From Escherichia coli (GTDB lineage Bacteria; Pseudomonadota; Gammaproteobacteria; Enterobacterales; Enterobacteriaceae), in NCBI RefSeq assembly GCF_044647545.1, contig NZ_CP172818.1: DNA of 64,000 nucleotides; one strand, 5' to 3'. Positions 1,009 through 43,682 of the stretch are shown one piece after another. Position numbers and translations under genes: made by a program. The notes under the pieces were generated by a model. It did not search any database, was not told the DNA's origin, and saw nothing but the letters and a program-made list of their open reading frames with translations. How positions within the stretch are numbered: position 1 is the stretch's first letter; each line of letters begins with the position of its first letter.

Positions 1009-1027
1009 CTCGCACTTTATTAACAAG

Positions 1028-1052
1028 CTAAAAAGGCGCCGAAGCGCCTTTA
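1028..1052. terminator. Bidirectional rho-independent terminator between convergent bglA and gcvP
   Basis: GC hairpin aggcgcc-gaa-gcgcct with A-run on one side and T-rich on the other. Confidence 0.6.
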
Positions 1053-1073
1053 GAAGATAGTCGAATCAGTGAA

Positions 1074-3947: not shown

Positions 3948-4065
3948 GAGCGATGGTTCCTGAAACGTGCAGTGAATTGTGAACCTCTCTCCTTGCGAAG
4001 AGAGTGAGGGTGAGGCGTAAAAGTTCCTCACCCTGATCCTCTCCCGCAGAAGAGGAATAAAGCCG

Positions 4066-4455
4066 TTACTCGTCTTCTAACAATGCTTCGTATGCGGTCG
4101 CATCCAGCAGTGATTCCAGTTCGCTTTCATCGCTGGCTTTGATTTTAAAGATCCAGCCGCCTGCATACGGTTCGCTGTTCACCAGTTCCGGGGAATCGCT
4201 CAGTGCGTCGTTTACCGCCACGATTTCACCGCTTACTGGCGCATAAATGTCTGACGCCGCTTTTACTGATTCGGCAACCGCGCAGTCATCGCCCGCGCTA
4301 ACCGTTGCGCCCACTTCCGGCAGGTCAACAAACACCATATCGCCTAACAGCTCCTGGGCATGTTCGGTGATACCAACGGTGTAAGTGCCGTCGGCTTCTT
4401 TACGCAGCCATTCGTGTTCTTTGCTGTATTTCAGTTCTGCTGGTACGTTGCTCAT
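4066..4455 (-). CDS. gcvH: Glycine cleavage system H protein (lipoyl carrier)
   Basis: 129-aa product [16 protein letters not shown]..., lipoyl-lysine region [19 protein letters not shown]. Confidence 0.95.
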
Positions 4456-4478
4456 CAATCAATCTCCAAAAAAGTAAA

Positions 4479-5573
4479 TCACGCGACGGCTTTACCGTTA
4501 CGCACAAAAACAGGTTTCGTCACTTTAACCGGCATTTCACGGTTGCGAATTTGTACAATCGCTGTTTCACCAATACCTTCCGGCACGCGCGCCAGCGCAA
4601 TGCTGTAACCCAGCGTCGGGGAGAAAGTACCGCTGGTGATAATGCCTTCATGCTGGTTGCCCTGCGCATCGGTAAAGCGTACCGGCAGTTCATTACGCAG
4701 CACGCCTTTTTCGGTCATCACCAGACCAACCAGTTTTTCTGTGCCATGCTCACGCTGCACTTCCAGGGCTTCACGACCGATGAAGTCACGATCTGCCGGT
4801 TCCCAGGCGATAGTCCAGCCCATATTGGCGGCTAAAGGAGAGATGGTTTCGTCCATCTCCTGACTATAAAGATTCATACCCGCTTCCAGACGCAGCGTGT
4901 CACGCGCGCCCAGGCCGCATGGCTTAACGCCCGCTTCCACCAGCGCGCGCCAGAAATCCGCCGCTTTTTCATTGGGCAGCGCAATTTCATAGCCCGCTTC
5001 ACCGGTATAACCAGTGGTGGCAATAAACAGATCGCCCGCCTGCACGCCAAAGAACGGTTTCATCCCTTCCACCGCCTGACGCTGGGCGTCATTAAACAGT
5101 GTGGCAGCTTTTGCCTGCGCATTCGGCCCTTGTACGGCGATCATGGAAAGGTCATCACGAACGGTAATTTCGATGCCGAAAGGTTCAGCGTGTTGGGTAA
5201 TCCAGGAGAGGTCTTTTTCGCGGGTGGCGGAGTTAACAACGAGGCGGAAGAAATCTTCAGTAAAGTAGTAGACGATGAGGTCATCTATCACACCGCCAGA
5301 GGCATTCAACATCCCCGAGTAAAGGGCTTTGCCGCTTTTGGTGAGTTTCGCCACATCGTTCGCCAGCAGATAACGCAGAAACTCCCGAGTGCGGCTGCCG
5401 CGAAGATCGACGATGGTCATATGTGACACATCAAACATTCCGGCATCGGTACGTACCGCATGATGTTCGTCGATTTGCGAACCGTAATGCAGCGGCATCA
5501 TCCAGCCGTGGAAATCCACCATGCGAGCGCCGCAAAGCGTGTGTTGTTCGTACAAAGGAGTCTGTTGTGCCAT
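4479..5573 (-). CDS. gcvT: Aminomethyltransferase, glycine cleavage T-protein
   Basis: 364-aa product from [13 protein letters not shown]...; ORF track includes an in-frame upstream extension that I do not call. Confidence 0.95.
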
Positions 5574-6020
5574 CTTGTCCTCATTGAATAAGCGGGGCTG
5601 ACAACTTTTCCATGGCGAAATTATCACCACGAAACCCAGCATCGGAGCCACTCCCGGTCCCCAACGCAATCGTTCTCTTTTGCCTGAACTTACCACCGAA
5701 ACAGACTGTTAACCATAAGGTAAAATTGATCATCACATTAGCTTATGGTTAAAAAATGCAAAAATCGCAACAGAATAAAAAACCAAAAAATGAACAAATC
5801 TCTATATAAAGATAAACAGATGAGAAAGTTAATTTGATTAATGCAATATTAAGAACTAAAAAAATGTCAAAAAACACTAAATCAAAAAATCATGACATTA
5901 GAAAATATAATGCGAAAACGGAGGTGAAATTAGTTTATTTCAAATGAGGAAAATCTCCCGGCGAAAAAACCGGGAGATGAAAGTGTGATGGGTATCAAAT
6001 AAACAACAGAGGAGAAATTT
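5574..6020 (-). promoter_or_regulatory. gcvTHP promoter/upstream regulatory region (AT-rich, ~450 bp)
   Basis: Long AT-rich non-coding interval upstream of gcvT; in E. coli this region carries GcvA/Lrp/CRP/PurR sites (not individually mapped here). Confidence 0.5.
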
Positions 6021-7223
6021 TTAACGCAGCCATTCAGGCAAATCGTTTAATCCCATTGCCTGGCGGATAAGTTGTGGTTTAACGCCAGGAAGCGTGTCGG
6101 CCAGTTTTAAACCAATATCACGCAGCAATTTTTTCGCCGGATTGGTACCGGAAAACAGATCGCGGAATCCCTGCATACCAGCCAGCATCAGCGCCGCACT
6201 GTGCTTACGGCTACGCTCATAGCGACGCAGGTAAATGTACTGCCCGATGTCTTTACCCTGACGATGCAACCGTTTCAGTTCAGCAATCAGCTCTGCAGCA
6301 TCCATAAAGCCGAGATTTACCCCCTGCCCCGCCAGCGGGTGAATAGTATGCGCGGCGTCGCCCACCAGCGCCAGACGGTGTGCGGCAAACTGGCGCGCAT
6401 AACGCCCCGTTAGCGGGAACACCAGGCGCTCACTTTCAACCTTGCATAAGCCCAGGCGATTATCAAAAGCGATATTTAACGCGCGATTAAATTCGTCTTC
6501 GCCTGCCTGCTGCATCCGCTGCGCTTCCTCTGGCGACAGTGACCAGACAATCGAGCAAAGATGCGGATCGCTAAGCGGCAAAAAGGCCAGAATGCCTTCG
6601 CCATGAAAAACCTGCCGCGCCACCGCATCATGCGGTTCTTCCGTGCGAATGGTCGCTACCAGCGCGTGATGCTGATAATCCCAGAAAGTCAGCGGAATAT
6701 CGGCTTTGTTGCGCAACCAGGAATTAGCGCCGTCCGCGCCAATCACCAGACGCGCCGTTAACATACTGCCATCTTTCAACGTCAGGAAGGTTTCATTTTC
6801 TCCCCAGGCGACCTGCTGTAATTCTGCGGGGGCCAACAGAGTGATATCTGACGACTGCTGCGCTTTGTTCCACAGCGCGTAGTGAATCACCGAGTTTTCA
6901 ACGATATGCCCAAGATGGCTATAGCCCATGCTTTGATCGTCAAACGAAATGTGACCAAAACTGTCTTTGTCCCACACTTCCATACCGTGATAACAACTGG
7001 CCCTACGAGAGAGAATGTCCTGCCAGACGCCAAGACGGGTGAGTAATTTTTCGCTGGCGGCATTGATAGCCGAAACGCGCAGTTGTGGTGGTGCATCCGC
7101 CGCCAGAGGTTCCGGTACGCGCTGCTCCAGTACGGCAACGCGTAAGCCGCTACCCTGCAAGCCGCAGGCAACCGCCAGCCCCACCATGCCGCCGCCAACA
7201 ATGGCTACATCAACACTTTGCAT
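6021..7223 (-). CDS. ubiI: FAD-dependent 2-octaprenylphenol hydroxylase
   Basis: 400-aa product with N-terminal FAD-binding GGGMVG motif; matches VisC/UbiI. Confidence 0.9.
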   Translation of the reverse strand: MQSVDVAIVGGGMVGLAVACGLQGSGLRVAVLEQRVPEPLAADAPPQLRVSAINAASEKLLTRLGVWQDILSRRASCYHGMEVWDKDSFGHISFDDQSMGYSHLGHIVENSVIHYALWNKAQQSSDITLLAPAELQQVAWGENETFLTLKDGSMLTARLVIGADGANSWLRNKADIPLTFWDYQHHALVATIRTEEPHDAVARQVFHGEGILAFLPLSDPHLCSIVWSLSPEEAQRMQQAGEDEFNRALNIAFDNRLGLCKVESERLVFPLTGRYARQFAAHRLALVGDAAHTIHPLAGQGVNLGFMDAAELIAELKRLHRQGKDIGQYIYLRRYERSRKHSAALMLAGMQGFRDLFSGTNPAKKLLRDIGLKLADTLPGVKPQLIRQAMGLNDLPEWLR

Positions 7224-7245
7224 TGTTTATTCCTTAAAACCGCCT

Positions 7246-8424
7246 TCAACGCGCCACCCACCCGAGGGTGCGCTGCGCCAGCACATCGCGTGCTGGGGTG
7301 AATAATTCCATTGCCATCAGCCCGATGTTGCGCCCGACAACCAGCGGCCCCCAACGGTTGGCAAAAAGATGTACAAGGCTGTCCGTGACGCCGATGGTTG
7401 CTTCGCGATCGCGCTGTCGACGCTGCTGATAACGGCACAATACGCCGTAATCACCCATGTCTTCTCCGCGCTCCTGCGCCTGAGTCAGGGTTTCCGCAAG
7501 GCTCATGACATCTCGCATACCGAGGTTGAACCCTTGCCCGGCAATCGGGTGCAGAGTTTGCGCCGCATTGCCCACCAGCACGGTACGATGGGTAATAGGT
7601 CTGGCGGCGCGGGTTAACGCCAGCGGATAAGCACTGCGTTTACCAGCGTGGGTAATTTTCCCAAGTCGCCAACCAAAGGCCGACTGGAGTTCACGGCAAA
7701 ACTTCTCGTCGCTCCAAGACAGTACCTCTTCGCGCCGTTCCAGTGGATGACACCAGACCAGCGAACAGCGTCCGTCAGACATCGGCAACATCGCCAGCGG
7801 GCCATATTGTGTAAAGCGTTCAAAAGCGCGCCCTTCATGCGCAACGGAAGTCGCAACGTTGGCAATCACAGCCAGTTGTTCGTAAGGCTCCTGCTGCCAG
7901 TCAACGCCGCACACGGTGGCTAACGCTGAATGGGTGCCATCAGCGGCTACCAGCACGCAGCCCGTCAGCGTCTCGCCACTCTCCAGCGTCACTTCAACGT
8001 GACTCTGAGTACGGGCAACGTTAGCCACGCGATCAGGACAATGCAGCGTTACGCCAGGTGCTTTGCGCAGCAATGCAAACAGCCGTTGCCCGACATTATG
8101 CAATTCGACAACCTGCCCCAGCGCCGCCAGTTGGTAATCTTCTGCGGCGAGGGTGACGAATCCGGCATGACCACGATCGCTGACATGCACGGTAGTGATG
8201 GCGGTTGCGCAATCAGCCAGAGATTGCCAGACGCCGATGCGCGCCAGTTGCTGACAGGTACCCGCCGCCAGCGCAATAGCCCGTCCATCAAAGCCCGGAT
8301 GAGCATGTGACTCTGGCGCAGTCGCTTCAATCAAATGTACCGGCAGCGCCCCGTGACTTAACCGGGAAATAGCCAGCGCCAGCGTCGCGCCCGCCATGCC
8401 GCCACCGACGATGATTACGCTCAT
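7246..8424 (-). CDS. ubiH: 2-octaprenyl-6-methoxyphenol hydroxylase
   Basis: 392-aa FAD monooxygenase, N-terminal IVGGGMAG; matches UbiH. Confidence 0.9.
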   Translation of the reverse strand: MSVIIVGGGMAGATLALAISRLSHGALPVHLIEATAPESHAHPGFDGRAIALAAGTCQQLARIGVWQSLADCATAITTVHVSDRGHAGFVTLAAEDYQLAALGQVVELHNVGQRLFALLRKAPGVTLHCPDRVANVARTQSHVEVTLESGETLTGCVLVAADGTHSALATVCGVDWQQEPYEQLAVIANVATSVAHEGRAFERFTQYGPLAMLPMSDGRCSLVWCHPLERREEVLSWSDEKFCRELQSAFGWRLGKITHAGKRSAYPLALTRAARPITHRTVLVGNAAQTLHPIAGQGFNLGMRDVMSLAETLTQAQERGEDMGDYGVLCRYQQRRQRDREATIGVTDSLVHLFANRWGPLVVGRNIGLMAMELFTPARDVLAQRTLGWVAR

Positions 8425-9746
8425 TGCTTTCTCGCAGCAGCCATCAACGCTTCGATTTCTTCCGGCTTTTTCACCACGCTGGCGGTGAGGTTTTCGTTGC
8501 CGGTTTCGGTAATCACAATGTCGTCTTCAATACGAATGCCGATACCGCGATATTGTTCTGGCACTTCTGCATCCGGCGCAATATACAGACCAGGCTCTAC
8601 GGTCAGTACCATCCCCGGTTCCAGAATACGCGAGCGATCCTGACCATAAACACCAACGTCATGAACATCCAGTCCTAACCAGTGGCTAAGGCCATGCATA
8701 AAGAAAGGACGATGGGCGTTCTGAGCGATCAGTTCATCAACATCACCTTTCAGGATGCCGAGTTTTACCAGGCCGCTAACCATGATGCGCACCACTTCAC
8801 CAGTGACTTCCTGCATGGAAGTTCCCGGACGATACAGCCGCAGGCTGGTTTCAAGAGACTCCAGCACAATGTCGTAGATTTCACGCTGGGCCAGGGTGAA
8901 TTTGCCGTTGACCGGGAAGGTGCGGGTAATATCGCCCGCGTAACCTTTGTATTCACAACCCGCGTCAATCAACACCAGGTCACCGTCGCGCAGTTCACTC
9001 TCGTTTTCGGTGTAGTGCAGAATGCAGCCATTTTCACCGCTGCCGACAATGGTGTTATAGGAAGGATAGCGCGCACCGTGGCGGTTAAATTCGTGGTGAA
9101 TTTCGCCTTCCAGGTGGTACTCGAACATTCCCGGACGGCATTTTTCCATCGCCCGGGTATGCGCCAGGGCGGTGATTTCCCCCGCGCGGCGAAGTACGGC
9201 AATCTCTTCTGGTGATTTGAACAGGCGCATTTCATGAACAATGGGACGCCAGTCGATCATCGTTGCCGGGGCAGTGAGATTCTGTCGCGAGCCTTTACGC
9301 AGCTTTTCCAGCGCGCTGTTCACGATTTCATCAGCATAGGTATATTCGCCCTGAGCGTGATAAACCACATCCAGACCATTAAGCAGTTGATAAAGTTGCT
9401 GATTGATTTCGCTGAATGCCAGTGCGCGGTCAACGCCCAGTTTCTCTGGCGCGGCATCCTGGCCTAAGCGACGACCAAACCAGATCTCTGCCGTCAGGTC
9501 GCGAACGCGGTTAAACAAAACGCTGTGGTTATGAGTGTCGTCGCTTTTAATCAGCACCAGCACCGCTTCCGGTTCGTTAAAGCCGGTGAAGTACCAGAAG
9601 TCACTGTTCTGACGATAGGGGTATTCGCTGTCGGCGCTACGTGTTACTTCTGGTGCAGCAAAAATCAGCGCGGCGCTGCCGGGTTGCATTTGCTCCACCA
9701 GGGCCTGACGGCGACGCTGAAACTCTTGCCGGGATATCTCACTCAT
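8421..9746 (-). CDS. pepP: Xaa-Pro aminopeptidase (aminopeptidase P)
   Basis: 441-aa product from MSEISRQEFQRRRQAL; M24 family; 4-bp overlap with ubiH. Confidence 0.95.
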   Translation of the reverse strand: MSEISRQEFQRRRQALVEQMQPGSAALIFAAPEVTRSADSEYPYRQNSDFWYFTGFNEPEAVLVLIKSDDTHNHSVLFNRVRDLTAEIWFGRRLGQDAAPEKLGVDRALAFSEINQQLYQLLNGLDVVYHAQGEYTYADEIVNSALEKLRKGSRQNLTAPATMIDWRPIVHEMRLFKSPEEIAVLRRAGEITALAHTRAMEKCRPGMFEYHLEGEIHHEFNRHGARYPSYNTIVGSGENGCILHYTENESELRDGDLVLIDAGCEYKGYAGDITRTFPVNGKFTLAQREIYDIVLESLETSLRLYRPGTSMQEVTGEVVRIMVSGLVKLGILKGDVDELIAQNAHRPFFMHGLSHWLGLDVHDVGVYGQDRSRILEPGMVLTVEPGLYIAPDAEVPEQYRGIGIRIEDDIVITETGNENLTASVVKKPEEIEALMAAARKQ

Positions 9747-9771
9747 AACACTCTCCTTACGTTTTTTGTTT

Positions 9772-10350
9772 TTAGTGTAGAGTCGGTTTTTGTACTTCTG
9801 GCGCGGTCGGTTGCGGATGAGTAAAGGTGTCGTGGCATAACAGCGCGGCAACACGAACGTATTCGATGATCTCTTCAAGCGACATTTCAAGCTCTTCCTG
9901 ATCTTCGTCTTCGTCGTAGCCCAGCTGCGCGATGTTACGCAGATCGTCGATGGCTTCACCGGTTTCTCCGGTCACTTTGTCCAGCTTCGGTTGCGTAACG
10001 CCAAGACCAAGCAGGAAGTGATTGACCCAACCTGCCAGCGCATCAGCCCGATCGAAAACGCTGACATCATCGCCATCAGGCAGATAAAGCTGAAAAAGGA
10101 AGCCGTCATCCTGCAGGGCATCGCTGGTGGCAGAGTGCATTTTACGCAGTGCCTGTGCCAGCTCATGACCGAAAGCCATGCCTTCGTTCGTCAGGTCGTG
10201 AAGTAGCGGCAGCCATGAGCTGTCATCGTTACCGCCACATATCATCCCACTGATTAAACCATGCATCTCAGCAGGGGTCAGACCCGTCCCTTGTTGGTTC
10301 AGATACTGGTTCATTTCGTTGTAACCAGGCATTTCGTTCTGTATAGACAT
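9772..10350 (-). CDS. ygfB: UPF0149 family protein YgfB
   Basis: 192-aa product [15 protein letters not shown]... Confidence 0.85.
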
Positions 10351-10451
10351 AAGCATTCGTCGTCAAAGGGAGGAATATTCATGATATGCTACCACTTTGG
10401 GCCCTGGTGGACCAGAAAAGGGCTTGTCTCTTCTCATCAGGGTAGCTATAG

Positions 10452-10847
<396 letters not shown>

Positions 10848-10888
10848 CACTTTTCGGTTTACTGTGGTAGAGTAACCGTGAAGACAAA

Positions 10889-11072
10889 ATTTCTCTGAGA
10901 TGTTCGCAAGCGGGCCAGTCCCCTGAGCCGATATTTCATACCACAAGAATGTGGCGCTCCGCGGTTGGTGAGCATGCTCGGTCCGTCCGAGAAGCCTTAA
11001 AACTGCGACGACACATTCACCTTGAACCAAGGGTTCAAGGGTTACAGCCTGCGGCGGCATCTCGGAGATTCC
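10889..11072 (+). ncRNA. ssrS: 6S RNA (RNA polymerase sigma70-holoenzyme regulator)
   Basis: Sequence atttctctgagatgttcgcaagcgggccagtcccctgagccgatatttcatacc...ggagattccc recognised as E. coli 6S RNA; -10-like tagagtaacc just upstream. Confidence 0.9.
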
Positions 11073-11146
11073 CTTCTTATCTGGCACCAGCCATGACGCA
11101 ACTACCCGAACTCCCACTGACATTATCCCGACAAGAAATCCGCAAA

Positions 11147-11695
11147 ATGATTCGGCAACGTCGTCGTACGTTAACGCCGGAACAACAGCAGGAAATGGGT
11201 CAACAAGCCGCTACCCGGATGATGACTTATCCCCCGGTGGTGATGGCACATACGGTCGCTGTATTCCTCTCTTTTGATGGCGAACTCGACACCCAGCCAC
11301 TCATAGAACAACTCTGGCGCGCCGGTAAGCGCGTATATCTTCCAGTTTTGCATCCCTTTAGTGCCGGTAATTTGCTGTTCCTGAATTACCATCCGCAAAG
11401 CGAACTGGTGATGAACAGGTTGAAGATCCATGAGCCAAAACTGGATGTGCGTGACGTGCTACCCCTTTCCCGATTAGACGTGTTGATCACACCGCTGGTC
11501 GCCTTTGATGAGTACGGTCAGCGCCTGGGAATGGGCGGTGGTTTTTATGATCGGACCTTACAAAACTGGCAGCACTATAAAATGCAACCGGTGGGTTATG
11601 CGCATGATTGTCAGTTGGTGGAAAAACTCCCCGTTGAAGAGTGGGATATCCCTCTTCCTGCGGTGGTTACACCGTCGAAAGTCTGGGAGTGGTAA
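11147..11695 (+). CDS. ygfA: 5-formyltetrahydrofolate cyclo-ligase
   Basis: 182-aa product MIRQRRRTLTPEQQQEMGQQAA...; lies immediately downstream of ssrS (ORF track shows a longer in-frame ORF overlapping 6S RNA). Confidence 0.85.
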   Translation: MIRQRRRTLTPEQQQEMGQQAATRMMTYPPVVMAHTVAVFLSFDGELDTQPLIEQLWRAGKRVYLPVLHPFSAGNLLFLNYHPQSELVMNRLKIHEPKLDVRDVLPLSRLDVLITPLVAFDEYGQRLGMGGGFYDRTLQNWQHYKMQPVGYAHDCQLVEKLPVEEWDIPLPAVVTPSKVWEW

Positions 11696-11754
11696 GGGCG
11701 ACACACCTGCATCGCCCTGATTGACATCGTTGATTCTTTAACCTAATTTAGTGA

Positions 11755-11897
11755 GTAAGGGTAAGGGAGGATGACTCCTCCCCTGAGACTGACTGTTAAT
11801 AAGCTGGGAAACTTATGAGTAACAGTACAATCAGTATGATGACAAGTCGCATCATAACCCTTCTCCTTCAAGCCCTCGCTTCGGTGAGGGCTTTACC
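11755..11897 (+). ncRNA. sibC: SibC antitoxin sRNA antisense to ibsC (boundaries approximate)
   Basis: Antisense to ibsC; ends at intrinsic terminator hairpin gccctcgc-ttcg-gtgagggc followed by ttt (11872-11894). Confidence 0.55.
11796..11855 (-). CDS. ibsC: Type I toxin IbsC (19-aa hydrophobic peptide)
   Basis: Minus-strand translation gives MMRLVIILIVLLLISFPAY*; too short for the ORF track. Confidence 0.8.
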   Translation of the reverse strand: MMRLVIILIVLLLISFPAY

Positions 11898-12030
11898 GTT
11901 ACAGCCCCATGCTGCCCTGCCATCGTAAATCCCCATTAAATAAACACAACGCATTGATCTGACTTTGATTTATTTTCTGGAGCAGACTCGCAAAGTAGAA
12001 TGCGCAATGCGGCAACGGTGTGGAGAAGGG

Positions 12031-12063
12031 ATAAAAAAATCGGGCAAGTCAGTGACCTGCCCG
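12031..12063 (-). terminator. Rho-independent terminator downstream of serA
   Basis: Hairpin cgggcaagtcagtgacctgcccg; on the minus strand it is followed by a T-run (plus-strand ataaaaaaat). Confidence 0.65.
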
Positions 12064-12084
12064 TTAATTTTCAGAGAAGGGGAA

Positions 12085-13317
12085 TTAGTACAGCAGACGG
12101 GCGCGAATGGTACCCGGAATAGCTTTCATTGCCTGCAGCGCTTTTTCGGCAACGTCTTCGTCGGCTTCAATATCAATAACTACATAACCCATCTGGGCGG
12201 AAGTTTGTAGATATTGCGCGGCGATGTTGACGCCCTGCTCGGCAAAAATTTTGTTGAGCGCAGTTAGCACGCCCGGACGGTTTTCGTGGATGTGCATCAG
12301 ACGACGCCCACCGTGCAGTGGCAGCGAGACTTCCGGGAAGTTCACCGCAGAGAGCGTTGAGCCATTGTCAGAATACTTGATCAATTTACCCGCAACTTCC
12401 AGGCCGATATTCTCCTGCGCTTCCTGAGTCGAACCGCCAATGTGTGGCGTCAGAAGGACGTTGTCGAATTCACACAGCGGAGAGGTAAATGGATCGCTAT
12501 TGGTTGCCGGTTCCGTCGGGAATACGTCGATTGCCGCCCCCGCCAGATGTTTGCTCGCCAGCGCGTCACACAGCGCCGGAATATCCACCACAGTACCGCG
12601 CGAAGCATTAATCAGCAGCGAGCCGGGCTTCATTAGTGAAATCTCTTTCGCACTCATCATATTTTTGGTGGACGGATTCTCTGGTACATGCAGACTCACC
12701 ACATCGCTCATATTCAGCAGGTCAGAAAGATGCTGTACCTGAGTGGCGTTGCCCAGCGGCAGTTTGTTTTCAATATCATAAAAGTAAACATACATTCCCA
12801 GCGATTCAGCCAGAATGCCCAATTGAGTACCAATATGACCATAGCCGATGATACCCAGCTTTTTGCCGCGCGCTTCAAAAGAACCCGCCGCCAGTTTGTT
12901 CCACACGCCACGGTGCGCTTTAGCATTGGCTTCCGGCACGCCGCGCAATAGCAGCAGCAGTTCGCCAATCACCAGCTCCGCAACAGAGCGCGTATTTGAG
13001 AACGGTGCGTTAAATACCGGGATACCGCGTTTTGCCGCCGCATCCAGATCAACCTGGTTTGTTCCGATACAGAAACAGCCAATAGCGACCAGTTTTTCTG
13101 CGGCGTTGATCACGTCTTCAGTCAGATGGGTACGGGATCGCAGGCCGATGAAGTGGGCATCGCGGATGGATTCTTTTAATTGTTCATCATCCAGCGCGCC
13201 TTTGTGAAATTCGATGTTGGTGTAACCCGCTGCACGAAGGCTTTCAAGCGCCTTTTGGTGCACGCCTTCTACCAGCAGAAACTTAATCTTGTCTTTCTCC
13301 AGCGATACCTTTGCCAT
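12085..13317 (-). CDS. serA: D-3-phosphoglycerate dehydrogenase
   Basis: 410-aa product MAKVSLEKDKIKFLLVEGVHQ... with C-terminal ACT domain. Confidence 0.95.
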   Translation of the reverse strand: MAKVSLEKDKIKFLLVEGVHQKALESLRAAGYTNIEFHKGALDDEQLKESIRDAHFIGLRSRTHLTEDVINAAEKLVAIGCFCIGTNQVDLDAAAKRGIPVFNAPFSNTRSVAELVIGELLLLLRGVPEANAKAHRGVWNKLAAGSFEARGKKLGIIGYGHIGTQLGILAESLGMYVYFYDIENKLPLGNATQVQHLSDLLNMSDVVSLHVPENPSTKNMMSAKEISLMKPGSLLINASRGTVVDIPALCDALASKHLAGAAIDVFPTEPATNSDPFTSPLCEFDNVLLTPHIGGSTQEAQENIGLEVAGKLIKYSDNGSTLSAVNFPEVSLPLHGGRRLMHIHENRPGVLTALNKIFAEQGVNIAAQYLQTSAQMGYVVIDIEADEDVAEKALQAMKAIPGTIRARLLY

Positions 13318-13572
13318 TTACCCAATCCTGTCTTTTGAAATGTTGTGTGCGGATTTGCATCCGCCTTTCAACATATCAAAAAATAATATTGCGGCAATAT
13401 GAACGTTTGCGTCGCGATGTTGAGGAAATATCACGCAAAGGTATTTCTTGGATGAATATGCTGGTTTAGAGGATTTATTTAGAGCAATCGACAATAGCCA
13501 GGTAAAAACGTGACACATGTCACCAAATTTAATGAAGAGAATTTTTTTAACGGGGGAGGTTCCCCCGTCAGA

Positions 13573-14232
13573 TCATTTCACAATGGTTTTGACACCGTCA
13601 GGTGTGCCAATCAGCGCAACGTCCGCGCCACGGTTAGCAAACAAGCCAACAGTCACCACGCCAGGAATCGCATTTATGGCGTTTTCCATCGCTATCGGGT
13701 CAAGGATTTCCATGCCGTGGACGTCGAGGATCACGTTGCCGTTATCGGTCACCACGCCCTGACGGTATTCCGGACGACCGCCCAGTTTCACCAGCTGGCG
13801 CGCCACTGCACTACGTGCCATCGGGATAACTTCTACTGGCAGCGGGAATTTGCCCAGAATATCAACCTGCTTGGAGGCGTCGGCAATACAGATAAATTTT
13901 TCCGCAACCGAAGCAATGATTTTTTCACGGGTCAGCGCCGCGCCGCCGCCTTTGATCATTTGCATGTGGCCGTTGATTTCATCTGCGCCATCAACGTAGA
14001 TGCCAAGGCTGTCGACTTCGTTGAGATCAAAAACGTGAATGCCGAGGCTTTTCAGTTTTTCAGTGGAAGCATCTGAACTGGAAACGGCCCCTTCAATCTG
14101 GCCTTTCATTGTACCGAGCGCGTCAATAAAGTGTGCGGCGGTGGAACCTGTACCTACACCAACAATGGTGCCGGGCTGAACATACTGAAGTGCCGCCCAT
14201 CCTACTGCTTTTTTCAATTCATCCTGGGTCAT
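13573..14232 (-). CDS. rpiA: Ribose-5-phosphate isomerase A
   Basis: 219-aa product [32 protein letters not shown]... Confidence 0.95.
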
Positions 14233-14287
14233 GATCGTTTCGCCTGTGGTATGAAATTTCACACGCATTATATACAAAAAAAGCGAT

Positions 14288-14518
14288 TCAGACCCCGTTG
14301 GCAAGCCGCGTGGTTAACTCATCCATAAAATATCGCGCAATGGCGGGCATCCCCTTTCGCCCGGCAAATAAAGCATACAACGGTCTGGGTATGCCGCTCC
14401 ACGGTGCAAACAGGCGCACCAGTTCACCGTTCGCAAGCCCCTGTTTACAGGCAAATTGAGGCAATAACGCCACGCCATTCAACCCAACCGGGACGCGAAC
14501 TCGCCGAGCAAAATGCAT
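14288..14518 (-). pseudogene. yqfE: C-terminal fragment of a LysR-family regulator
   Basis: 76-aa ORF resembling only the C-terminal tail of a LysR-type effector domain; no N-terminal HTH portion upstream. Confidence 0.6.
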
Positions 14519-14584
14519 TAGCGCAAATCCCTGATCTTATTACACAAGTATTTAATCATTATCTTTAATATAAAAGGAGTTATT

Positions 14585-14845
14585 ATGTCTATTAAGCAAA
14601 ATTTATTTGCCGCATTATTTCTTTGCACTCTCACAGGACACGCATTTGCCGCAACCGAGATACACAAACCGGACAATAATCTTGAACAGTTATCAAAAGT
14701 GAGCATGTCCACACACAATAGCAATCCAGCGGGCGTTGAAAGCCAAATCAAAAGAGAAAGCGGAAGAGTTACAAGCCAGCAATTACTACATCAGTTCTTT
14801 CTCCGTAAAAATTATATCCACGCCACTGTAATTTTCTATAAATAG
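14585..14845 (+). CDS. Hypothetical small exported protein (86 aa)
   Basis: Strong SD (aaggag) 7 nt upstream of ATG; N-terminal signal-peptide-like segment MSIKQNLFAALFLCTLTGHAFAA. Confidence 0.45.
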   Translation: MSIKQNLFAALFLCTLTGHAFAATEIHKPDNNLEQLSKVSMSTHNSNPAGVESQIKRESGRVTSQQLLHQFFLRKNYIHATVIFYK

Positions 14846-15528
14846 CCCCTCTGTTTAACGGAAGCATGGAATTATTCCATGCTCCTCTGCCAAAATGAAA
14901 TAAAAAATGAAAAAAGCTAATCTTACAGGTACGTTGGTTTGCTTTGTCGCATGCCTTATTTTTTTGTCGTCCGGTGATATTTTTCGTGAAAAGCCAATCG
15001 CTCTAATATGGTTCCTTCGACAAAACATACTCTTTTTTACGGGAACTCTTGCGTGGTGTCTGATGACGCTGACGATGTGTTTATCGTTGCGTTCATCATG
15101 GCTTAACAAAGTGCTGGGCGGTCTGGATAAAGTATGGCGAATCACATAAGTGGGCAGGAATATGCGCCATAGCGTTTGCTTTCGCCCACTGGCTGGATGA
15201 AAAATTACCCCAGTTATTCGTCGCCTTTGGCTGGCTTACTCACCCTGGTAAAATCGTTGATATTAACCTGACGCCAGTACAAGAAAATTGGCTTCATGCG
15301 GGACTGTTAGCGGGTGAATGCGCAATGTTTATTATTATAGCGATGGTTTGCGTATCTCTTAGCAAAAGAGTTCCCTATCATTTATTTCATCTTGTTCACC
15401 GTTTGTTCCCCGTCTTTTATCTGGCAATTGCCTTTCATGTGTTTACTGCTTTGTTTAAATCATACTGGTGGAACTCCTGCTGCGTATTTATTAATTTTAA
15501 TTACTATTCCGGGCGTCTTTGCGGCTTT

Positions 15529-15537
15529 CATTTCGCT
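15529..15537. repeat. Left copy of 9-bp target-site duplication (catttcgct) flanking IS1
   Basis: Identical 9-mer directly abuts both IS1 ends. Confidence 0.85.
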
Positions 15538-16307
15538 GGTAATGACTCCAACTTACTGATAGTGTTTTATGTTCAGATAATGCCCGATGACTTTGTCATG
15601 CAGCTCCACCGATTTTGAGAACGACAGTGACTTCCGTCCCAGCCTTGCCAGATGTTGTCTCAGATTCAGGTTATGTCGCTCAATGCGCTGAGTGTAACGC
15701 TTGCTGATTACGTGCAGCTTTCCCTTCAGGCGGGATTCATACAGCGGCCAGCCATCCGTCATCCATACCACGACCTCAAAGGCCGACAGCAGGCTCAGAA
15801 GACGCTCCAGTGTGGCCAGAGTGCGTTCACCGAAGACGTGCCACAACCGTCCTCCGTATCCTGTCATACGCGTAAAACAGCCAGCGCTGACGTGATTTAG
15901 CACCGACGTAGCCCCACTGTTCGTCCATTTCAGCGCAGACAATCACATCACTGCCCGGCTGTATGCGCGAGGTTACCGACTGCGGCCTGAGTTTTTTAAT
16001 AAAGTGACGTAAAATCGTGTTGAGGCCAACGCCCATAATGCGGGCGGTCGCCCGGCATCCAACACCATTCATGGCCATATCAATGATTTTCTGGTGTGTA
16101 CCGGGTTGAGAAGCGGTGTAAGTGAACTGCAGTTGCCATGTTTTACGGCAGTGAGAGCAGAGATAGCGCTGATGTCCGGCAGTACTTTTACCGTTACGCA
16201 CCACGCCTTCAGTAGCTGAGCAGGAGGGACAACTGATGGAGATGGAAGCCACGGGAGCACCTCAAAAACACCATCATACACTAAATCAGTAAGTTGGCAC
16301 CATTACC
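15538..16307 (-). mobile_element. IS1-family insertion sequence (770 bp), divergent isoform
   Basis: Terminal inverted repeats ggtaatgactccaacttactgat / atcagtaagttggcaccattacc; InsA and InsB homologous ORFs on minus strand; flanked by 9-bp direct repeat. Confidence 0.92.
15553..16252 (-). pseudogene. insAB: IS1 insA-insB region; insA fused in-frame to insB' but insB then frameshifted (defective transposase)
   Basis: ORF 15827-16252 = [13 protein letters not shown]...[16 protein letters not shown]...[13 protein letters not shown]; 4-nt insertion at the A6C slippery site (cgtcactttattaaaaaactc) puts insA in the insB frame; a further indel (~2 nt) shifts frame so the rest of InsB is ORF 15553-15942. 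Confidence 0.8.
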
Positions 16308-16316
16308 CATTTCGCT
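16308..16316. repeat. Right copy of 9-bp target-site duplication (catttcgct) flanking IS1
   Basis: Identical to 15529-15537. Confidence 0.85.
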
Positions 16317-17082
16317 GCTGAAATTCAAACGGTAGTAAAAACAAGCATCAGGCTACCATTAAAAACATTGTTAACCATCCAGGACAAATTACCGAAGTCA
16401 CCCTGGAACTGGAACATGCCATCGACTATTCTCCGGGGCAGTTTGCATTCTTAACGTTCGCACACAGTAAAGAATCTCACCCTTTTACTATCGCTTCATA
16501 CACCAAAGAGAAGAACACGTTGCGCTTTGCCATCAAAAATTTAGGGGATTATACCTCTACCCTTGCATCCTCGATAAAAATCGGCCAGTCCGCCTTCGTT
16601 GAAGGGCCATGGGGAAAGTTTGATTTAGACTCTCCCTTGCTCCCACCAGGTCTGGATAGCAGGAGGCATCGGCATTACCCCCTTTATCGCCCAGCTTGAG
16701 TATCGTAAACATCATGGCGCGTCCTCTGTTCCTGTGGATCTCTGGTATTACGTCAGCCGAAGCGAGGATGCCTGGTATGTTGATAAACTGACCTCACTTT
16801 GTGCCCAGGCCAGGGTCACACTGCATCTGCTTGATGCGCATAAAGGTGAGCGCCTACAGGCGCACTATCTTACTGATAAAATAGCAAATAAAGGTGACAC
16901 CCATTTCTGGTTTTGCGGCCCACAGAGTTTTGCCAAAGCGCTCAGCAAAGGGTTATATGAAAATGGGATTGCCAGCCAAAACTTCCATTACGACCGTTTT
17001 TGTATGCGTTAAATGCTCTGTACCCAACGCAAAATTGTGTCATAGTGCAGGAAAAAGCATTTACCAGGAGCAGACAACAGCA

Positions 17083-17976
17083 ATGAAACGCCCGGACTAC
17101 AGAACATTACAGGCACTGGATGCGGTGATACGTGAACGAGGATTTGAACGCGCGGCACAAAAGCTGTGCATTACACAATCAGCCGTCTCACAGCGCATTA
17201 AGCAACTGGAAAATATGTTCGGGCAGCCGCTGTTGGTGCGTACCGTACCGCCGCGCCCGACAGAACAAGGGCAAAAACTGCTGGCACTGCTACGCCAGGT
17301 GGAGTTGCTGGAAGAAGAGTGGCTGGGCGATGAACAAACCGGTTCGACTCCGCTGCTGCTTTCACTGGCGGTCAACGCCGACAGTCTGGCGACGTGGTTG
17401 CTTCCGGCGCTGGCTCCTGTGTTGGCTGATTCGCCTATCCGCCTCAACTTGCAGGTAGAAGATGAAACCCGCACTCAGGAACGTCTGCGCCGCGGCGAAG
17501 TGGTCGGCGCGGTGAGTATTCAACATCAGGCGCTGCCGAGTTGCCTTGTCGATAAGCTCGGTGCGCTTGACTATCTGTTCGTCAGCTCAAAACCGTTTGC
17601 CGAAAAATATTTCCCTAACGGCGTAACGCGTTCGGCATTATTGAAAGCACCTGTGGTCGCCTTTGACCATCTTGACGATATGCACCAGGCCTTTTTGCAG
17701 CAAAACTTCGATCTGCCCCCAGGCAGCGTACCGTGCCATATCGTTAATTCTTCAGAAGCGTTCGTACAACTTGCTCGCCAGGGCACCACCTGCTGTATGA
17801 TCCCGCACCTGCAAATCGAGAAAGAACTGGCCAGCGGCGAACTGATTGACTTAACGCCGGGGCTATTTCAACGCCGGATGCTCTACTGGCACCGCTTTGC
17901 TCCTGAAAGCCGCATGATGCGTAAAGTCACTGATGCGTTGCTCGATTATGGTCACAAAGTCCTTCGTCAGGATTAA
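17083..17976 (+). CDS. argP: LysR-family regulator ArgP/IciA
   Basis: 297-aa product [43 protein letters not shown]... (HTH at N-terminus); ORF track has an in-frame upstream extension. Confidence 0.95.
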
Positions 17977-18179
17977 TCCATCAAATAATGCCTGATAGCA
18001 CATATCAGGCGTTATCCTCACTTCTTTTTGTATTCCTTGAATCACATCACAAAATAGACAAATCTCAGGCGGCAAAAAACGACGTCTGAATGCATTTTTT
18101 TTGCTGGCGACAAACCCACGTAAAAAGCTCACCGTAAGCGCAAATACCCTCATTTTGATTGCGTTTTACGGAGCAAATA

Positions 18180-20323
18180 ATGTCTAACGTGCAGGAGTGG
18201 CAACAGCTTGCCAACAAGGAATTGAGCCGTCGGGAGAAAACTGTCGACTCGCTGGTTCAGCAAACCGCGGAAGGGATCGCCATCAAGCCGCTGTATACCG
18301 AAGCCGATCTCGATAATCTGGAGGTGACAGGTACCCTTCCTGGTTTGCCCCCTACGTTCGTGGCCCGCGTGCCACTATGTATACCGCCCAACCGTGGACC
18401 ATCCGTCAGTATGCTGGTTTTTCAACAGCAAAAGAGTCCAACGCTTTTTATCGCCGTAACCTGGCCGCCGGGCAAAAAGGTCTTTCCGTTGCGTTTGACC
18501 TTGCCACCCACCGAGGCTACGACTCCGATAACCCGCGCGTGGCGGGCGACGTCGGCAAAGCGGGCGTTGCTATCGACACCGTGGAAGATATGAAAGTCCT
18601 GTTCGACCAGATCCCGCTGGATAAAATGTCGGTTTCGATGACCATGAATGGCGCAGTACTACCAGTACTGGCGTTTTATATTGTCGCCGCAGAAGAGCAA
18701 GGTGTTACACCCGATAAACTGACCGGCACCATTCAAAACGATATCCTCAAAGAGTATCTTTGCCGCAACACCTATATTTACCCGCCAAAACCGTCAATGC
18801 GTATTATCGCAGACATCATCGCCTGGTGTTCCGGCAACATGCCGCGATTTAATACCATCAGTATCAGCGGTTACCATATGGGTGAAGCGGGTGCCAACTG
18901 CGTGCAGCAGGTAGCATTTACGCTCGCTGATGGGATTGAGTACATCAAAGCAGCAATCTCCGCCGGGCTGAAAATTGATGACTTCGCTCCTCGCCTGTCG
19001 TTCTTCTTCGGCATTGGCATGGATCTGTTTATGAACGTCGCCATGTTGCGTGCGGCACGTTATTTATGGAGCGAAGCGGTCAGTGGATTTGGCGCACAGG
19101 ATCCGAAATCACTGGCGCTGCGTACCCACTGCCAGACCTCAGGCTGGAGCCTGACTGAACAGGATCCGTATAACAACGTTATACGCACCACCATTGAAGC
19201 ACTGGCTGCAACGCTGGGCGGTACTCAGTCACTGCATACCAACGCCTTTGATGAAGCGCTTGGTTTGCCTACCGATTTCTCAGCACGCATTGCCCGCAAT
19301 ACCCAGATCATCATTCAGGAAGAATCAGAACTCTGCCGCACCGTCGATCCACTGGCCGGATCCTATTACGTTGAATCGCTGACCGATCAAATCGTCAAAC
19401 AAGCCAGAGCCATTATCCAACAGATCGACGAAGCCGGTGGCATGGCGAAAGCGATCGAAGCAGGTCTGCCAAAACGAATGATCGAAGAGGCCTCAGCGCG
19501 CGAACAGTCGTTGATCGACCAGGGCAAGCGTGTCATCGTTGGTGTCAACAAGTACAAACTGGATCACGAAGACGAAACCGATGTACTTGAGATCGACAAC
19601 GTGATGGTGCGTAACGAGCAAATTGCTTCGCTGGAACGCATTCGCGCCACCCGTGATGATGCCGCCGTAACCGCCGCGTTGAACGCCCTGACTCACGCCG
19701 CACAGCATAACGAAAACCTGCTGGCTGCCGCTGTTAATGCCGCTCGCGTTCGCGCAACGCTTGGTGAAATTTCCGATGCACTGGAAGCGGCATTTGACCG
19801 TTATCTGGTGCCAAGCCAGTGTGTTACCGGCGTGATTGCGCAAAGCTATCATCAGTCTGAGAAATCGGCCACCGAGTTCGATGCCATTGTTGCGCAAACG
19901 GAGCAGTTCCTTGCCGACAATGGTCGTCGCCCGCGCATTCTGATCGCCAAAATGGGCCAGGATGGGCACGATCGCGGCGCGAAAGTGATCGCCAGCGCCT
20001 ATTCCGATCTCGGTTTCGACGTAGATTTAAGCCCGATGTTCTCTACACCTGAAGAGATCGCCCGCCTGGCAGTAGAAAACGACGTTCACGTAGTGGGCGC
20101 ATCTTCACTGGCTGCCGGTCATAAAACGCTGATCCCGGAACTGGTCGAAGCGCTGAAAAAATGGGGACGCGAAGATATCTGCGTGGTCGCGGGTGGCGTC
20201 ATTCCGCCGCAGGATTACGCCTTCCTGCAGGAGCGCGGCGTGGCGGCGATTTATGGTCCAGGTACGCCTATGCTCGACAGCGTGCGCGACGTACTGAATC
20301 TGATAAGCCAGCATCATGATTAA
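18180..20323 (+). pseudogene. scpA: Methylmalonyl-CoA mutase (sleeping beauty mutase) with a -1 frameshift after codon ~57
   Basis: N-terminus MSNVQEWQQLANKELSRREK...TGTLPGLPP in frame 0 (ORF 18159-18593), then conserved [30 protein letters not shown]... continues in frame 2 (ORF to 20323); shift occurs in the C5 run at 18348-18352. Confidence 0.8.
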
Positions 20324-27137: not shown

Positions 27138-27269
27138 TCAATATTCCTTTTCAACTGACTCAAAATGGAGAAATACACTCCGCCGCCTTATGACGGGCAG
27201 TCTGACAAGGGTAAACAATAAAGCATAATTTTGCCAAATAGATCACAGATTTCTCATCTGTATCCTCTG

Positions 27270-36485: not shown

Positions 36486-36779
36486 AAATTATCCTTATTT
36501 TATTTTTAGGGTACCGTCCGGCGGTAAAAATAAAATACTCGTGCGGTTTAATGAAAGCAATTGAGAAGAAAAACCCCATAAACCAAAATAATAAAACCTT
36601 AAATAACAACAATATGAAATTGATATTTTTAAAGTCAACTTTGTATTTGTTATATTTATCACAAAATCAACATTTTGTTTGTTATTGTATTTGTGATGCA
36701 TATCTCTATTTATTTATTGAATGTTCGAAAACATACTTTTCTAATGCAATGTTTTTTCGCTATACCCCTTTATAGATTC

Positions 36780-40399: not shown

Positions 40400-40441
40400 T
40401 TTATTACGCCGGATTTGACGCATAACGCATCTTATCCGGGC

Positions 40442-41425: not shown

Positions 41426-41528
41426 AAGGGTTGGATTTGCGAAACACAAGTATGCGCTAATTATCGCCTTAAATGAAAAGAGGGCCGCATCAAGGACTAA
41501 CACAGGTCCCATACCACCAAACTCCAAC

Positions 41529-43542
<2,014 letters not shown>

Positions 43543-43550
43543 AGCGAACC

Positions 43551-43682
43551 TCAAATTATTTTATTAAGTGTAAAACAGTTAACGACTATCGCAGCCTGGA
43601 ACTGCGATAACAACCCATAAGCACATGGATTTTCCAGCAGTGAATGCTGACGCTCCAACTGCGCAACCGGTTTCTTTTTCAT
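43551..43682 (-). CDS. yqgB: Small protein YqgB (43 aa)
   Basis: Minus-strand [46 protein letters not shown] just upstream of speA. Confidence 0.7.

Follow-up and report, generated by a model that had tools for sequence, protein, structure and literature searches.

A decayed, non-functional four-gene redox cassette in the rpiA-argP interval of Escherichia coli

Remnants of four genes in the window

What was the stretch of DNA between rpiA and argP before it decayed, and how much of its present damage was inflicted by evolution? In the window, that is, the whole analysed stretch of 64,000 nucleotides, this interval covers positions 14233-17083 and measures 2851 bp (rpiA start at 14232, argP ATG at 17084), as against 427 bp in K-12 MG1655, where it holds a 231-bp LysR-fragment ORF; the first-pass annotation, which gave about 2.85 kb here and a few hundred bp with yqfE in K-12, was correct on both counts. 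The interval is a non-functional remnant of a four-gene redox cassette, with the following features between its two intact flanks.

13573-14232, minus strand: rpiA, left flank, intact (219-aa ORF, 100% identical to ECONIH1 rpiA)
14288-14518, minus strand: C-terminal fragment of a LysR-family regulator, the equivalent of K-12 yqfE (tblastn, 76 codons)
14480/14481, no strand: junction of a 1346-bp deletion (alignment to the ECONIH1 locus L001)
14482-14568, plus strand: 3′ remnant of an AzoR-like FMN-dependent NADH reductase gene (last 28 codons, 14482-14565, and stop)
14585-14845, plus strand: gene for a DUF1471 (YhcN/BhsA/RclB-like) periplasmic protein, frame-scrambled inside (86-aa ORF, family profile)
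14907-15537, plus strand: predicted NOX gene, transmembrane (ferric-reductase-like, di-heme) part, frameshifted at 15140 (+1) and 15471 (-2)
15538-16307, minus strand: IS1 (inverted repeats, target duplication), at NOX codon ~211, between the transmembrane and dehydrogenase domains
16317-17012, plus strand: predicted NOX gene, FAD/NAD(P)H dehydrogenase part, frameshifted at 16326 (+1) and 16627 (+1)
17084-17979, plus strand: argP, right flank, intact (297-aa product identical to WP_000828351.1, the annotated product in ECONIH1 and K-12)

Rfam and tRNA scans of positions 13300-18300 yielded nothing above noise, the single sub-threshold match having an E-value of 0.07.

The LysR fragment lies where it had been reported, and residues 233-298 of the 298-residue regulator map to 14488-14291 with 97% identity (tblastn). 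Its ORF, which is annotated with the same length in K-12-type genomes, takes 66 of its 76 codons from the regulator C-terminus, while the first ten or so are antisense to the 3′ end of another gene. In alignment with the ECONIH1 locus, window 14233-14480 corresponds to L001 3001-3248, and window 14481 onward to L001 4595 onward; the intervening deletion takes out residues 1-232 of LysR together with the divergent promoter region, as well as residues 1-181 of the AzoR-like reductase, and its junction, which is devoid of microhomology, is identical in K-12-type genomes. The reductase had escaped the first-pass annotation, which described a module of three genes instead of four: 87% of the gene is deleted, with residues 182-209 remaining at 100% identity (tblastn). 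Its intact 209-aa orthologue matches FMN-dependent NADH-azoreductase families (PRK13556, E 7.5e-20, under the subfamily cut-off) and the Pfam domains Flavodoxin_2 and FMN_red. The intact LysR orthologue comprises HTH_1 and LysR_substrate domains.

The 86-aa ORF has the features of an exported protein that were previously ascribed to it, namely a strong Shine-Dalgarno sequence (AAGGAG, 7 nt ahead of the ORF) and a signal peptide of the Sec type (...GHAFA/ATE), but its interior does not correspond to any natural allele: in comparison with all of them it has gained an A at 14750 and lost a G at 14804, and residues 58-75 differ. Because these residues are frame-shifted, the window copy scores merely 21.8 bits against the BhsA family, where the natural allele scores 53.1 bits. 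The intact orthologue combines a size of about 85 aa, a Sec signal peptide and a family-profile match (Pfam YdgH_BhsA-like; BhsA E 3.6e-14, YhcN 1e-9, RclB 2e-6), and, since all scores are under the equivalog cut-offs, it is a member of the family and not the orthologue of any named protein.

The flavocytochrome, originally described as a broken protein of about 440 residues, was recovered as a 441-aa match in five frame pieces (tblastn; aa 1-79, 72-195, 161-212; 215-317, 315-441), with its HPFTIAS, GGIGITPF and CGP motifs all in place. Between them, the four frameshifts and IS1 leave no uninterrupted reading frame, and the first frameshift already puts the His80/His94 heme ligands out of frame.

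The IS1 element is 770 bp long, has 23-nt inverted repeats at 15538-15560 and 16285-16307 (87% complementarity), and the 9-bp target sequence CATTTCGCT is duplicated on either side of it, at 15529-15537 and 16308-16316. An identical insertion in ECONIH1 is annotated as an IS1 family transposase, the same element occupies the same site in about 35 complete E. coli genomes, and the 217-aa NOX product that it cuts short occurs in 1,900 index blocks; the insertion is genuine biology, common to the ECONIH1 lineage. The window copy resembles other IS1 elements in length (768-770 bp), 23-nt repeats, 9-bp duplication and minus-strand transposase, but departs from them in its indels and lost coding capacity: compared with the ECONIH1 copy, it lacks 2 nt at 15839, has 4 extra nt at 15998-16001 by the A6C frameshift motif and carries one substitution, and its broken reading frames would not encode InsAB′.

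Identity, spread and loss of the cassette

Intact homologues of the reconstructed flavocytochrome do exist, and, as judged from its sequence, it is a bacterial NOX-family (SpNOX-like) protein. We assessed membership by the filter motifs of Hajjar et al. 2017 (PMC5676040). The FAD motif H[PSA]F[TS][LIMV] is represented by HPFTI at residue 265 (window ~16479-16493), the NADPH motif by GIGITP at residue 327, which in the window lies downstream of two frameshifts, and the bis-histidyl H-X12-14-H motifs by H80-X13-H94 and H164-X12-H177 in the intact orthologue; in the alignment, both pairs fall on the heme ligands that PMC11031084 identified in TM3 and TM5 of SpNOX. The intact orthologue also contains the Pfam domains Ferric_reduct (residues 45-174), FAD_binding_8 and NAD_binding_1. 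In phmmer searches it matched the SpNOX structures 8qq7, 8qt6 and 8qta with E~1e-26 over residues 136-425, the TM3 His pair also aligning, and further matches were to the SpNOX DH domain, NOX5 and CsNOX5. For comparison with the roughly six transmembrane helices that the family carries N-terminal to its dehydrogenase domain, a crude hydropathy scan revealed five clear hydrophobic segments, the His80-His94 helix falling under the cut-off. Hajjar et al. expressed an “EcNOX” (L2VL28, from E. coli KTE10) with spectra weaker than those of SpNOX, which may or may not be the cassette gene (PMC5676040). A second NOX homologue, 38% identical, adjoins IS66 in some E. coli, and remoter homologues (~40% identity) stand alone, without a cassette.

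In its intact form, the cassette consists of a LysR regulator gene that reads away from a predicted three-gene operon for the AzoR-like FMN reductase, the DUF1471 protein and the 441-aa NOX. We found the NOX-like gene in 248 of the 5,426 complete genomes of E. coli examined (4.6%), where it is always chromosomal and single-copy and falls into three allele classes within the species (>=99%, ~98% and ~95%). E. coli IMT16316, PCN033 and F2_81 have intact cassettes in the rpiA-argP interval, and the same site is occupied in E. whittamii, Escherichia sp. E1V33 and Escherichia sp. MOD1-EC7003, each with independent and differing NOX lesions. Salmonella enterica has the four genes in the same order at another locus, with 52% aa identity in NOX; one S. 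enterica strain carries an Escherichia-type four-gene cassette at rpiA-argP, where dS is 0.17-0.57 for the cassette versus 0.9-1.4 for the flanks, indicating cross-genus transfer into the same site. The cassette shows signs of purifying selection, with dN/dS of 0.05-0.23, and the 100-bp LysR-azoR intergenic region hardly varies from E. coli to Salmonella; it includes ATTGTT-N10-AACAAT, an interrupted dyad of the T-N11-A type expected in divergent promoters of LysR-type regulators. A scan of the intact cassette for sigma-70 promoters and terminators gave no more sites than shuffled sequence.

In K-12, the yqfE fragment (b2915, annotated as a LysR-family C-terminal fragment or a pseudogene) agrees with the LysR fragment of the window in position and in its 231-bp ORF, and the junction of the 1346-bp deletion coincides base for base, but the K-12 locus additionally lacks window ~14539-17021 (DUF1471, NOX and IS1) and has about 60 bp instead. 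We found no convincing alignment of this filler to either strand of the cassette, and the right-hand boundary could therefore be set only to about window 17022. The flanks of K-12-type genomes differ from the window at 3-9% of positions (identity at most 96.3%), and these genomes keep the 3′ ends of LysR and azoR at 91-97% identity, from which it follows that the cassette is older than the split between K-12-type and cassette-bearing E. coli. The earlier idea of an ancestral LysR-regulated redox module largely deleted in K-12 is thus borne out: the cassette, intact in about 5% of E. coli, sits at this very position there and also in other Escherichia. Most E. coli, K-12 included, kept the yqfE stub alone, and loss of the cassette in Escherichia is ordinary gene decay. 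Our literature search for yqfE found no paper on the rpiA-argP locus.

These comparisons explain the K-12 yqfE fragment as the stub of a NOX-containing cassette, with its deletion junctions defined. They also place a bacterial NOX homologue of E. coli and Salmonella in a conserved four-gene context with a conserved regulatory region, and reveal that this gene was repeatedly lost or broken in Escherichia and swapped with Salmonella at the same chromosomal site.

Alternative readings of the damage and of the ancestry

Of all lesions at this locus, only the IS1 insertion is common to real genomes. The window has no differences from the ECONIH1 core over blocks of 13.5 kb and 14.5 kb, yet at this locus 12 window-private events fall within 2.6 kb, versus 9 in 58 kb elsewhere (Poisson P~2.5e-14), which is statistically incompatible with neutral decay. 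The private lesions are mostly indels (indels to substitutions 2:1), and include the four NOX frameshifts, two more inside the 86-aa ORF, and a deletion of the K-12 type that lies on an ECONIH1 haplotype: its junction is that of K-12, and the flanks on which it sits are 100% ECONIH1-type. The remaining accessory segments of the window are low-complexity or A-rich junk, including a 35-nt poly-A run. None of the 5,426 complete E. coli genomes has the configuration of the window, and its 86-aa and 76-aa products are absent from an index of 153 billion genes; an exact scan of JGI metagenome contigs for the deletion junction returned no matches either, but carries no information, since its positive control, the IS1/NOX junction of real ECONIH1-type genomes, returned none as well.

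The lineage-specific erosion proposed in the first pass is probably not the source of the small indels and of the deletion on the ECONIH1 haplotype, given that they are private to the window, do not fit neutral decay and are accompanied by corrupted sequence elsewhere. Because there are 12 private lesions, a K-12 junction on an ECONIH1 haplotype, junk in other segments and no public genome alike, these lesions most likely represent corruption of the sequence as supplied, through assembly, polishing or synthetic generation, rather than mutations of a living lineage. Two more specific explanations were rejected. Recombination with K-12-type DNA does not account for the deletion, as the nearest K-12-type SNPs, 25 bp to the left and 4 bp to the right of the junction, are absent from the window, and unpolished long-read error does not suffice as the sole cause in view of the two core blocks with zero differences.

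It could be argued that every lesion is genuine, and that the window comes from an unsampled close relative of ECONIH1 in which the cassette, already inactivated by IS1, kept eroding by the 1346-bp deletion and by eight small indels. Other genomes do share the IS1 insertion, which is real, decay of the remaining cassette would be expected once NOX was dead, natural frameshifts and deletions in the NOX gene of other Escherichia lineages make a heavily decayed copy not implausible, and the source strain could indeed be unsampled. We nevertheless regard this history as unlikely: the ECONIH1-identical core leaves only a tiny divergence time for so dense a cluster of private events, in which indels prevail over substitutions; the junction reproduces that of K-12 to the base, without microhomology, on ECONIH1-type flanks; neither the configuration nor its products were found in the genome set or the exact-product index; and poly-A and A-rich junk stand in place of other accessory genes of the window. 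Equally improbable, in our estimate, is a cassette that was never ancestral, having been imported horizontally into the carrier lineages while the K-12 stub testifies to an older, separate gain and loss. Cross-genus transfer of the Escherichia-type cassette did occur, as seen in the Salmonella strain, and less than one E. coli genome in twenty is a carrier; but the same site is occupied in E. whittamii and two cryptic Escherichia clades, K-12-type genomes retain closely similar remnants of two cassette genes, and the three E. coli allele classes look like vertical diversification.

There is also a very slight chance that part of the remnant still works here, through production of the 86-aa protein or separate action of the split NOX halves. 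The ORF of the former is open, with a strong Shine-Dalgarno sequence and an intact signal peptide, and the annotation of ECONIH1-type genomes gives each NOX half as an intact CDS of its own. However, the operon promoter region and the first gene are deleted from the window, the scrambling of DUF1471 residues 58-75 makes its family score collapse, and both NOX halves are further frameshifted, with His80 and His94 out of frame after the first of these lesions. A dead four-gene NOX cassette, with a genuine IS1 insertion and additional window-private lesions most likely due to corruption, is in our judgement a quite probable explanation of the whole locus. It should be kept in mind that, with part of the damage at this locus probably artefactual, other findings from the window require a provenance check.

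Proposed function and comparison with known systems

By analogy with SpNOX structures and enzymology, the intact NOX would move hydride from NAD(P)H to FAD, and single electrons would then cross the inner membrane by way of two b-hemes, ligated by His80/His94 and His164/His177, and reach an acceptor in the periplasm. For bacterial NOX, the acceptor in vitro is O2, and the physiological role and in vivo acceptor are stated as open questions (PMC11564096). The LysR regulator probably turns the operon on via the conserved dyad, a putative site in the divergent promoter region. None of this would be able to work in the window, where the DNA-binding half of LysR, the promoter region and most of the reductase are deleted, DUF1471 is scrambled and NOX is broken. 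Tentatively, and with considerable doubt, we suggest that the cassette may be a dedicated envelope redox-stress system, in which NOX would pass NAD(P)H electrons to a periplasmic target together with the DUF1471 protein, and that its repeated inactivation in Escherichia may reflect a fitness cost, such as self-inflicted superoxide. Should this be true, the cassette would make the physiological role of bacterial NOX accessible to genetics. Beyond Hajjar 2017, we found no papers tying bacterial NOX to DUF1471.

SpNOX of Streptococcus pneumoniae (PMC5676040; 8QQ7, 8QT6-8QTA; PMC11031084, PMC11564096) shares with the intact orthologue a ferric-reductase-like domain with two bis-His sites, which in the orthologue too may have six helices, an FAD/NAD(P)H dehydrogenase domain after it, and the HPFT and GIGITP motifs. 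In contrast to SpNOX, the cassette NOX is Gram-negative and chromosomal and resides inside a LysR/AzoR-like/DUF1471 cassette, and its window copy is a pseudogene. The proposed route of electrons is reminiscent of MsrPQ (YedYZ) of E. coli, in which MsrQ, a di-heme membrane protein of the FRD superfamily, hands reducing power from the cytoplasm on to a partner in the periplasm; in the SpNOX work this system is cited as the model for a protein that might be the acceptor of bacterial NOX (PMC11564096). MsrQ, however, relies on Fre in place of a fused dehydrogenase and works with MsrP, a molybdoenzyme, whereas the cassette NOX is fused to its dehydrogenase and its DUF1471 neighbour is without cofactor or cysteines. 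A parallel in overall make-up is RclR-RclABC, the reactive-chlorine resistance system of E. coli, which likewise combines a divergent regulator, a cytoplasmic flavoenzyme, a DUF1471 protein (RclB) and an inner-membrane protein. Its regulator is of the AraC type, its flavoenzyme is RclA and RclC is unrelated to NOX, and the likeness is thus organisational, homology having been compared for DUF1471 alone, where the cassette protein matches the RclB model with E-values from 2e-6 to 1.5e-11.

The rpiA–argP interval and its intact counterpart

In the window, the rpiA start codon (14232) and the argP ATG (17084) are separated by 2851 bp, versus a spacing of 427 bp in K-12 MG1655 that contains a 231-bp LysR-fragment ORF, and measurement thus bears out the expansion to about 2.85 kb from a few hundred bp proposed in the first-pass annotation. 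The LysR fragment, the 86-aa ORF with its strong Shine-Dalgarno sequence and the flavocytochrome remnants split by an IS1, which had been recognized there, were all located, as were the motifs HPFTIAS, GGIGITPF and CGP:

14288-14518, minus strand: C-terminus of a LysR-type regulator, in a 231-bp ORF of which the last 66 codons match
14482-14568: 3′ end of another gene (AzoR-like reductase), last 28 codons and stop
14585-14845: 86-codon ORF, preceded at 7 nt by AAGGAG; its signal peptide ends in ..GHAFA, followed by ATE
14907-15537 and 16317-17012: fragments of a large membrane flavoprotein gene
15538-16307: IS1 between these fragments, with 23-nt terminal inverted repeats and the 9-bp target duplication CATTTCGCT

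When the interval was searched by megablast in 5,426 complete E. coli genomes, other strains proved to have a longer, annotated form of the locus. The suggested search for intact homologues and their neighborhood thus yielded a full four-gene cassette, which in IMT16316, PCN033 and F2_81 is arranged in the order rpiA, LysR, a 100-bp gap, AzoR-like, DUF1471, the 441-aa gene and argP:

LysR regulator, 298 aa, minus strand
FMN-dependent NADH-azoreductase-like protein, 209 aa
DUF1471 protein, 86 aa
NOX-family protein, 441 aa, annotated as ‘ferredoxin reductase family protein’

All of these components fall into known families, and RefSeq genomes already annotate them; our literature search turned up nothing that places the E. 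coli NOX homologue in its cassette or connects it with yqfE, the K-12 LysR fragment, and herein lies the modest added value of the present analysis. The 441-aa gene occurs in 248 of the 5,426 genomes, chromosomal and single-copy in every case, and its alleles form three classes (≥99%, ~98% and ~95% identity). The same IS1 occupies the identical NOX position in about 35 genomes, among them that of ECONIH1, a strain that the window matches essentially perfectly in core genes, and the 217-aa truncated product of the IS1-cut gene is common in public assemblies (1,900 index blocks). In five genomes (e.g. NZ_AP024687.1) the element at this site is of IS1A type and not the ECONIH1-type IS1, which could reflect IS1 sequence conversion or a second insertion into the same target.

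Ancestry and natural decay of the cassette

Among GTDB species representatives, the cassette was found at rpiA–argP in three other Escherichia, with a different natural lesion in each:

Escherichia whittamii: NOX gene lacking residues 72-326 through an internal deletion, and also frameshifted
Escherichia sp. E1V33: frameshifts and truncation
Escherichia sp. MOD1-EC7003: LysR frameshift, and a deletion joining DUF1471 residue 43 to NOX residue 279

In the window and in K-12-type genomes, a 1346-bp deletion has exactly the same junction to the base (…GCCACGCCATTC joined to AAC…), which connects the LysR gene at codon ~233 with the azoR-like gene at its 3′ end; K-12-type genomes further lack sequence equivalent to window positions ~14539 to 17021. 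The proposed alignment with K-12 thereby defined the extent of the loss, and the view of an ancestral module largely deleted in K-12 gains support. Given its presence at the same site in three other Escherichia and the junction shared with K-12-type genomes, the cassette is old in Escherichia; its NOX gene has been repeatedly inactivated within the genus, and yqfE is a cassette stub. An Escherichia-type cassette also lies between rpiA and argP in a strain assigned to Salmonella enterica by its exact SerA and ArgP sequences (locus L009, 4048-7338, on a Logan SRR1264948 contig). Its dS (0.17-0.57) is below that of the flanks (0.9-1.4), indicating that the cassette has also been transferred between genera into the homologous site.

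Provenance of the window-private lesions

Relative to ECONIH1, the window copy of the locus carries four substitutions and the following lesions:

1346-bp deletion
+A 14750 and -G 14804: DUF1471 gene, compensating, with residues 58-75 scrambled
+A 15140 and -GA 15471
-GC 15839: IS1, insB
+AATA 15998-16001: IS1, directly beside the A6C programmed-frameshift motif
+C 16326 and +A 16627

The NOX gene is left in five frame pieces. The regulator has lost its HTH domain and the reductase gene 181 of its 209 codons, and the promoter region is gone. The IS1, otherwise identical to the ECONIH1 copy, would, judging from its reading frames, not make the InsAB′ transposase. No functional element is left in the interval.

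Are these lesions natural? The window matches ECONIH1 without a difference over 1011-14480 and 41566-56085, yet 12 private events fall within 2.6 kb of the locus versus 9 in ~58 kb elsewhere (Poisson P~2.5e-14), with indels outnumbering substitutions 2:1. The private variants occur in none of the natural alleles examined (the three E. coli classes, the Salmonella copy, E. whittamii and E1V33). The deletion junction is that of K-12, although it lacks microhomology, and both of its flanks are 100% ECONIH1-type; across this junction, identity to real K-12-type genomes does not exceed 96.3%. Such a combination of junction and flanks is difficult to explain by descent from the K-12-type deletion, by its independent recurrence or by recombinational import. 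The deletion together with a retained DUF1471 gene was found in 0 of 5,426 complete genomes, and an exact-match index of 153 billion genes has no entry for the 86-aa or the 76-aa product of the window, whereas the ECONIH1-type product is common there.

Moreover, all other accessory segments separating ECONIH1 from K-12 are represented in the window by low-complexity sequence:

36562-37319: 757 bp, 33% GC, homopolymer-rich (CCCCCTTTTTTTCTTTTTTACCCC...AAAAAAAGG), replacing the prohibitin-family gene (909 bp) that ECONIH1 has between cmtB and tkt
41476-41565: ~90 bp ending in a 35-nt poly-A (A35), replacing a 732-bp hypothetical gene of ECONIH1 between speB and speA
56108-57265: 1.16 kb, A-rich (44% A), with runs A17, A14 and A11, replacing the 3.2-kb TRAP transporter operon of ECONIH1 between hemW and yggM

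The first of these is only ~75% identical to the real prohibitin-family gene, with GC-to-AT changes and many 1-bp gaps, and looks corrupted or synthetic; K-12 has a different 58-bp sequence at the speB–speA site; and part of the third aligns to the TRAP permease gene only if G and T bases are dropped. In view of the event rate, the privacy of the variants, the junction, the absence from public data and the junk elsewhere, we consider it probable that the sequence as supplied is corrupted at accessory loci and, jointly with this, that the actual locus of the source resembles that of ECONIH1, its sole lesion being the IS1. Reference-guided assembly or polishing, or synthetic generation, could be the cause.

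Further differences from ECONIH1 were located at 1007-1011, 27264-27267, 40399-40439 and 58617-58888. Between bglA and gcvP, ~100 bp of intergenic sequence are missing; other intergenic deletions are small (7, 4 and 1 bp) and fall at sites of structural difference between K-12 and ECONIH1; and ansB has a cluster of three substitutions. Otherwise the core genes are identical. In scpA (methylmalonyl-CoA mutase, 18159-20323; 714 aa in ECONIH1 and K-12), a 1-bp deletion at 18347 (C7 to C6) yields ORFs of 144 and 648 aa.

The locus, then, is of an ordinary kind, an accessory cassette reduced to pseudogenes at a site already known for a pseudogene in K-12. To this extent the decayed module of the first-pass annotation stands; the erosion specific to the window is probably not biology, and any biological reading of it should await the provenance of the sequence.

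The intact cassette and related systems

The 209-aa protein is AzoR-like (Flavodoxin_2 and FMN_red domains), the 86-aa protein is a DUF1471 family member, matching BhsA, YhcN, RclB and McbA, all under equivalog cut-offs, and the regulator is a generic LysR-type protein. An identical four-gene set and order occurs at an unrelated locus in Salmonella enterica (identities: NOX 52%, AzoR-like 72%, LysR 70%, DUF1471 37%), while more distant NOX homologues at ~40% identity (Pantoea, Trabulsiella and a second E. coli paralogue) occur without the cassette. Comparison of E. coli with the nearest copy outside it gives dN/dS values of 0.05-0.23 for the four genes. The LysR–azoR intergenic region (3453-3552 of L004, a locus of another genome), deleted in the window, is near-invariant from E. 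coli to Salmonella, with synonymous sites of flanking genes saturated, and includes a candidate LysR operator, the dyad ATTGTT-N10-AACAAT, of a type typical of such regulators. The shared gene order, the dN/dS and the near-invariant region with its dyad support, without proving, a LysR-controlled operon.

The 441-aa protein contains Ferric_reduct (residues 45-174), FAD_binding_8 and NAD_binding_1 domains. Its best solved relatives are structures of the Streptococcus pneumoniae NADPH oxidase SpNOX (8qq7, 8qt6, 8qta; E~1e-26), followed by the SpNOX dehydrogenase domain, NOX5 and CsNOX5. It passes all sequence filters for bacterial NOX of Hajjar et al. 2017 (PMC5676040), with HPFTI at 265, GIGITP at 327, H80-X13-H94 and H164-X12-H177, and both His pairs align with the heme ligands in TM3 and TM5 of SpNOX (PMC11031084). 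The candidates of Hajjar et al. include the E. coli KTE10 protein L2VL28, ‘EcNOX’ (PMC5676040), which we do not equate here with the cassette gene. Some E. coli possess a second, 38%-identical NOX-family paralogue, which adjoins IS66 outside the rpiA–argP cassette (4001-5308 of L015, a locus from GCA_050547405.1).

By analogy with SpNOX, FAD in the cytoplasmic domain would be reduced by NAD(P)H, and electrons would then pass via the inner and the outer heme to the periplasmic side of the membrane. SpNOX shows constitutive activity, accepts NADH as well as NADPH, and has O2, cytochrome c and SOD as in vitro acceptors; its authors state that the acceptor under physiological conditions may be something other than O2 and could be a protein, as in MsrPQ (PMC11564096). 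The neighboring AzoR-like reductase and DUF1471 stress protein suggest that the cassette may act in a context of quinone or oxidant stress, and its organization recalls that of RclR-RclABC.
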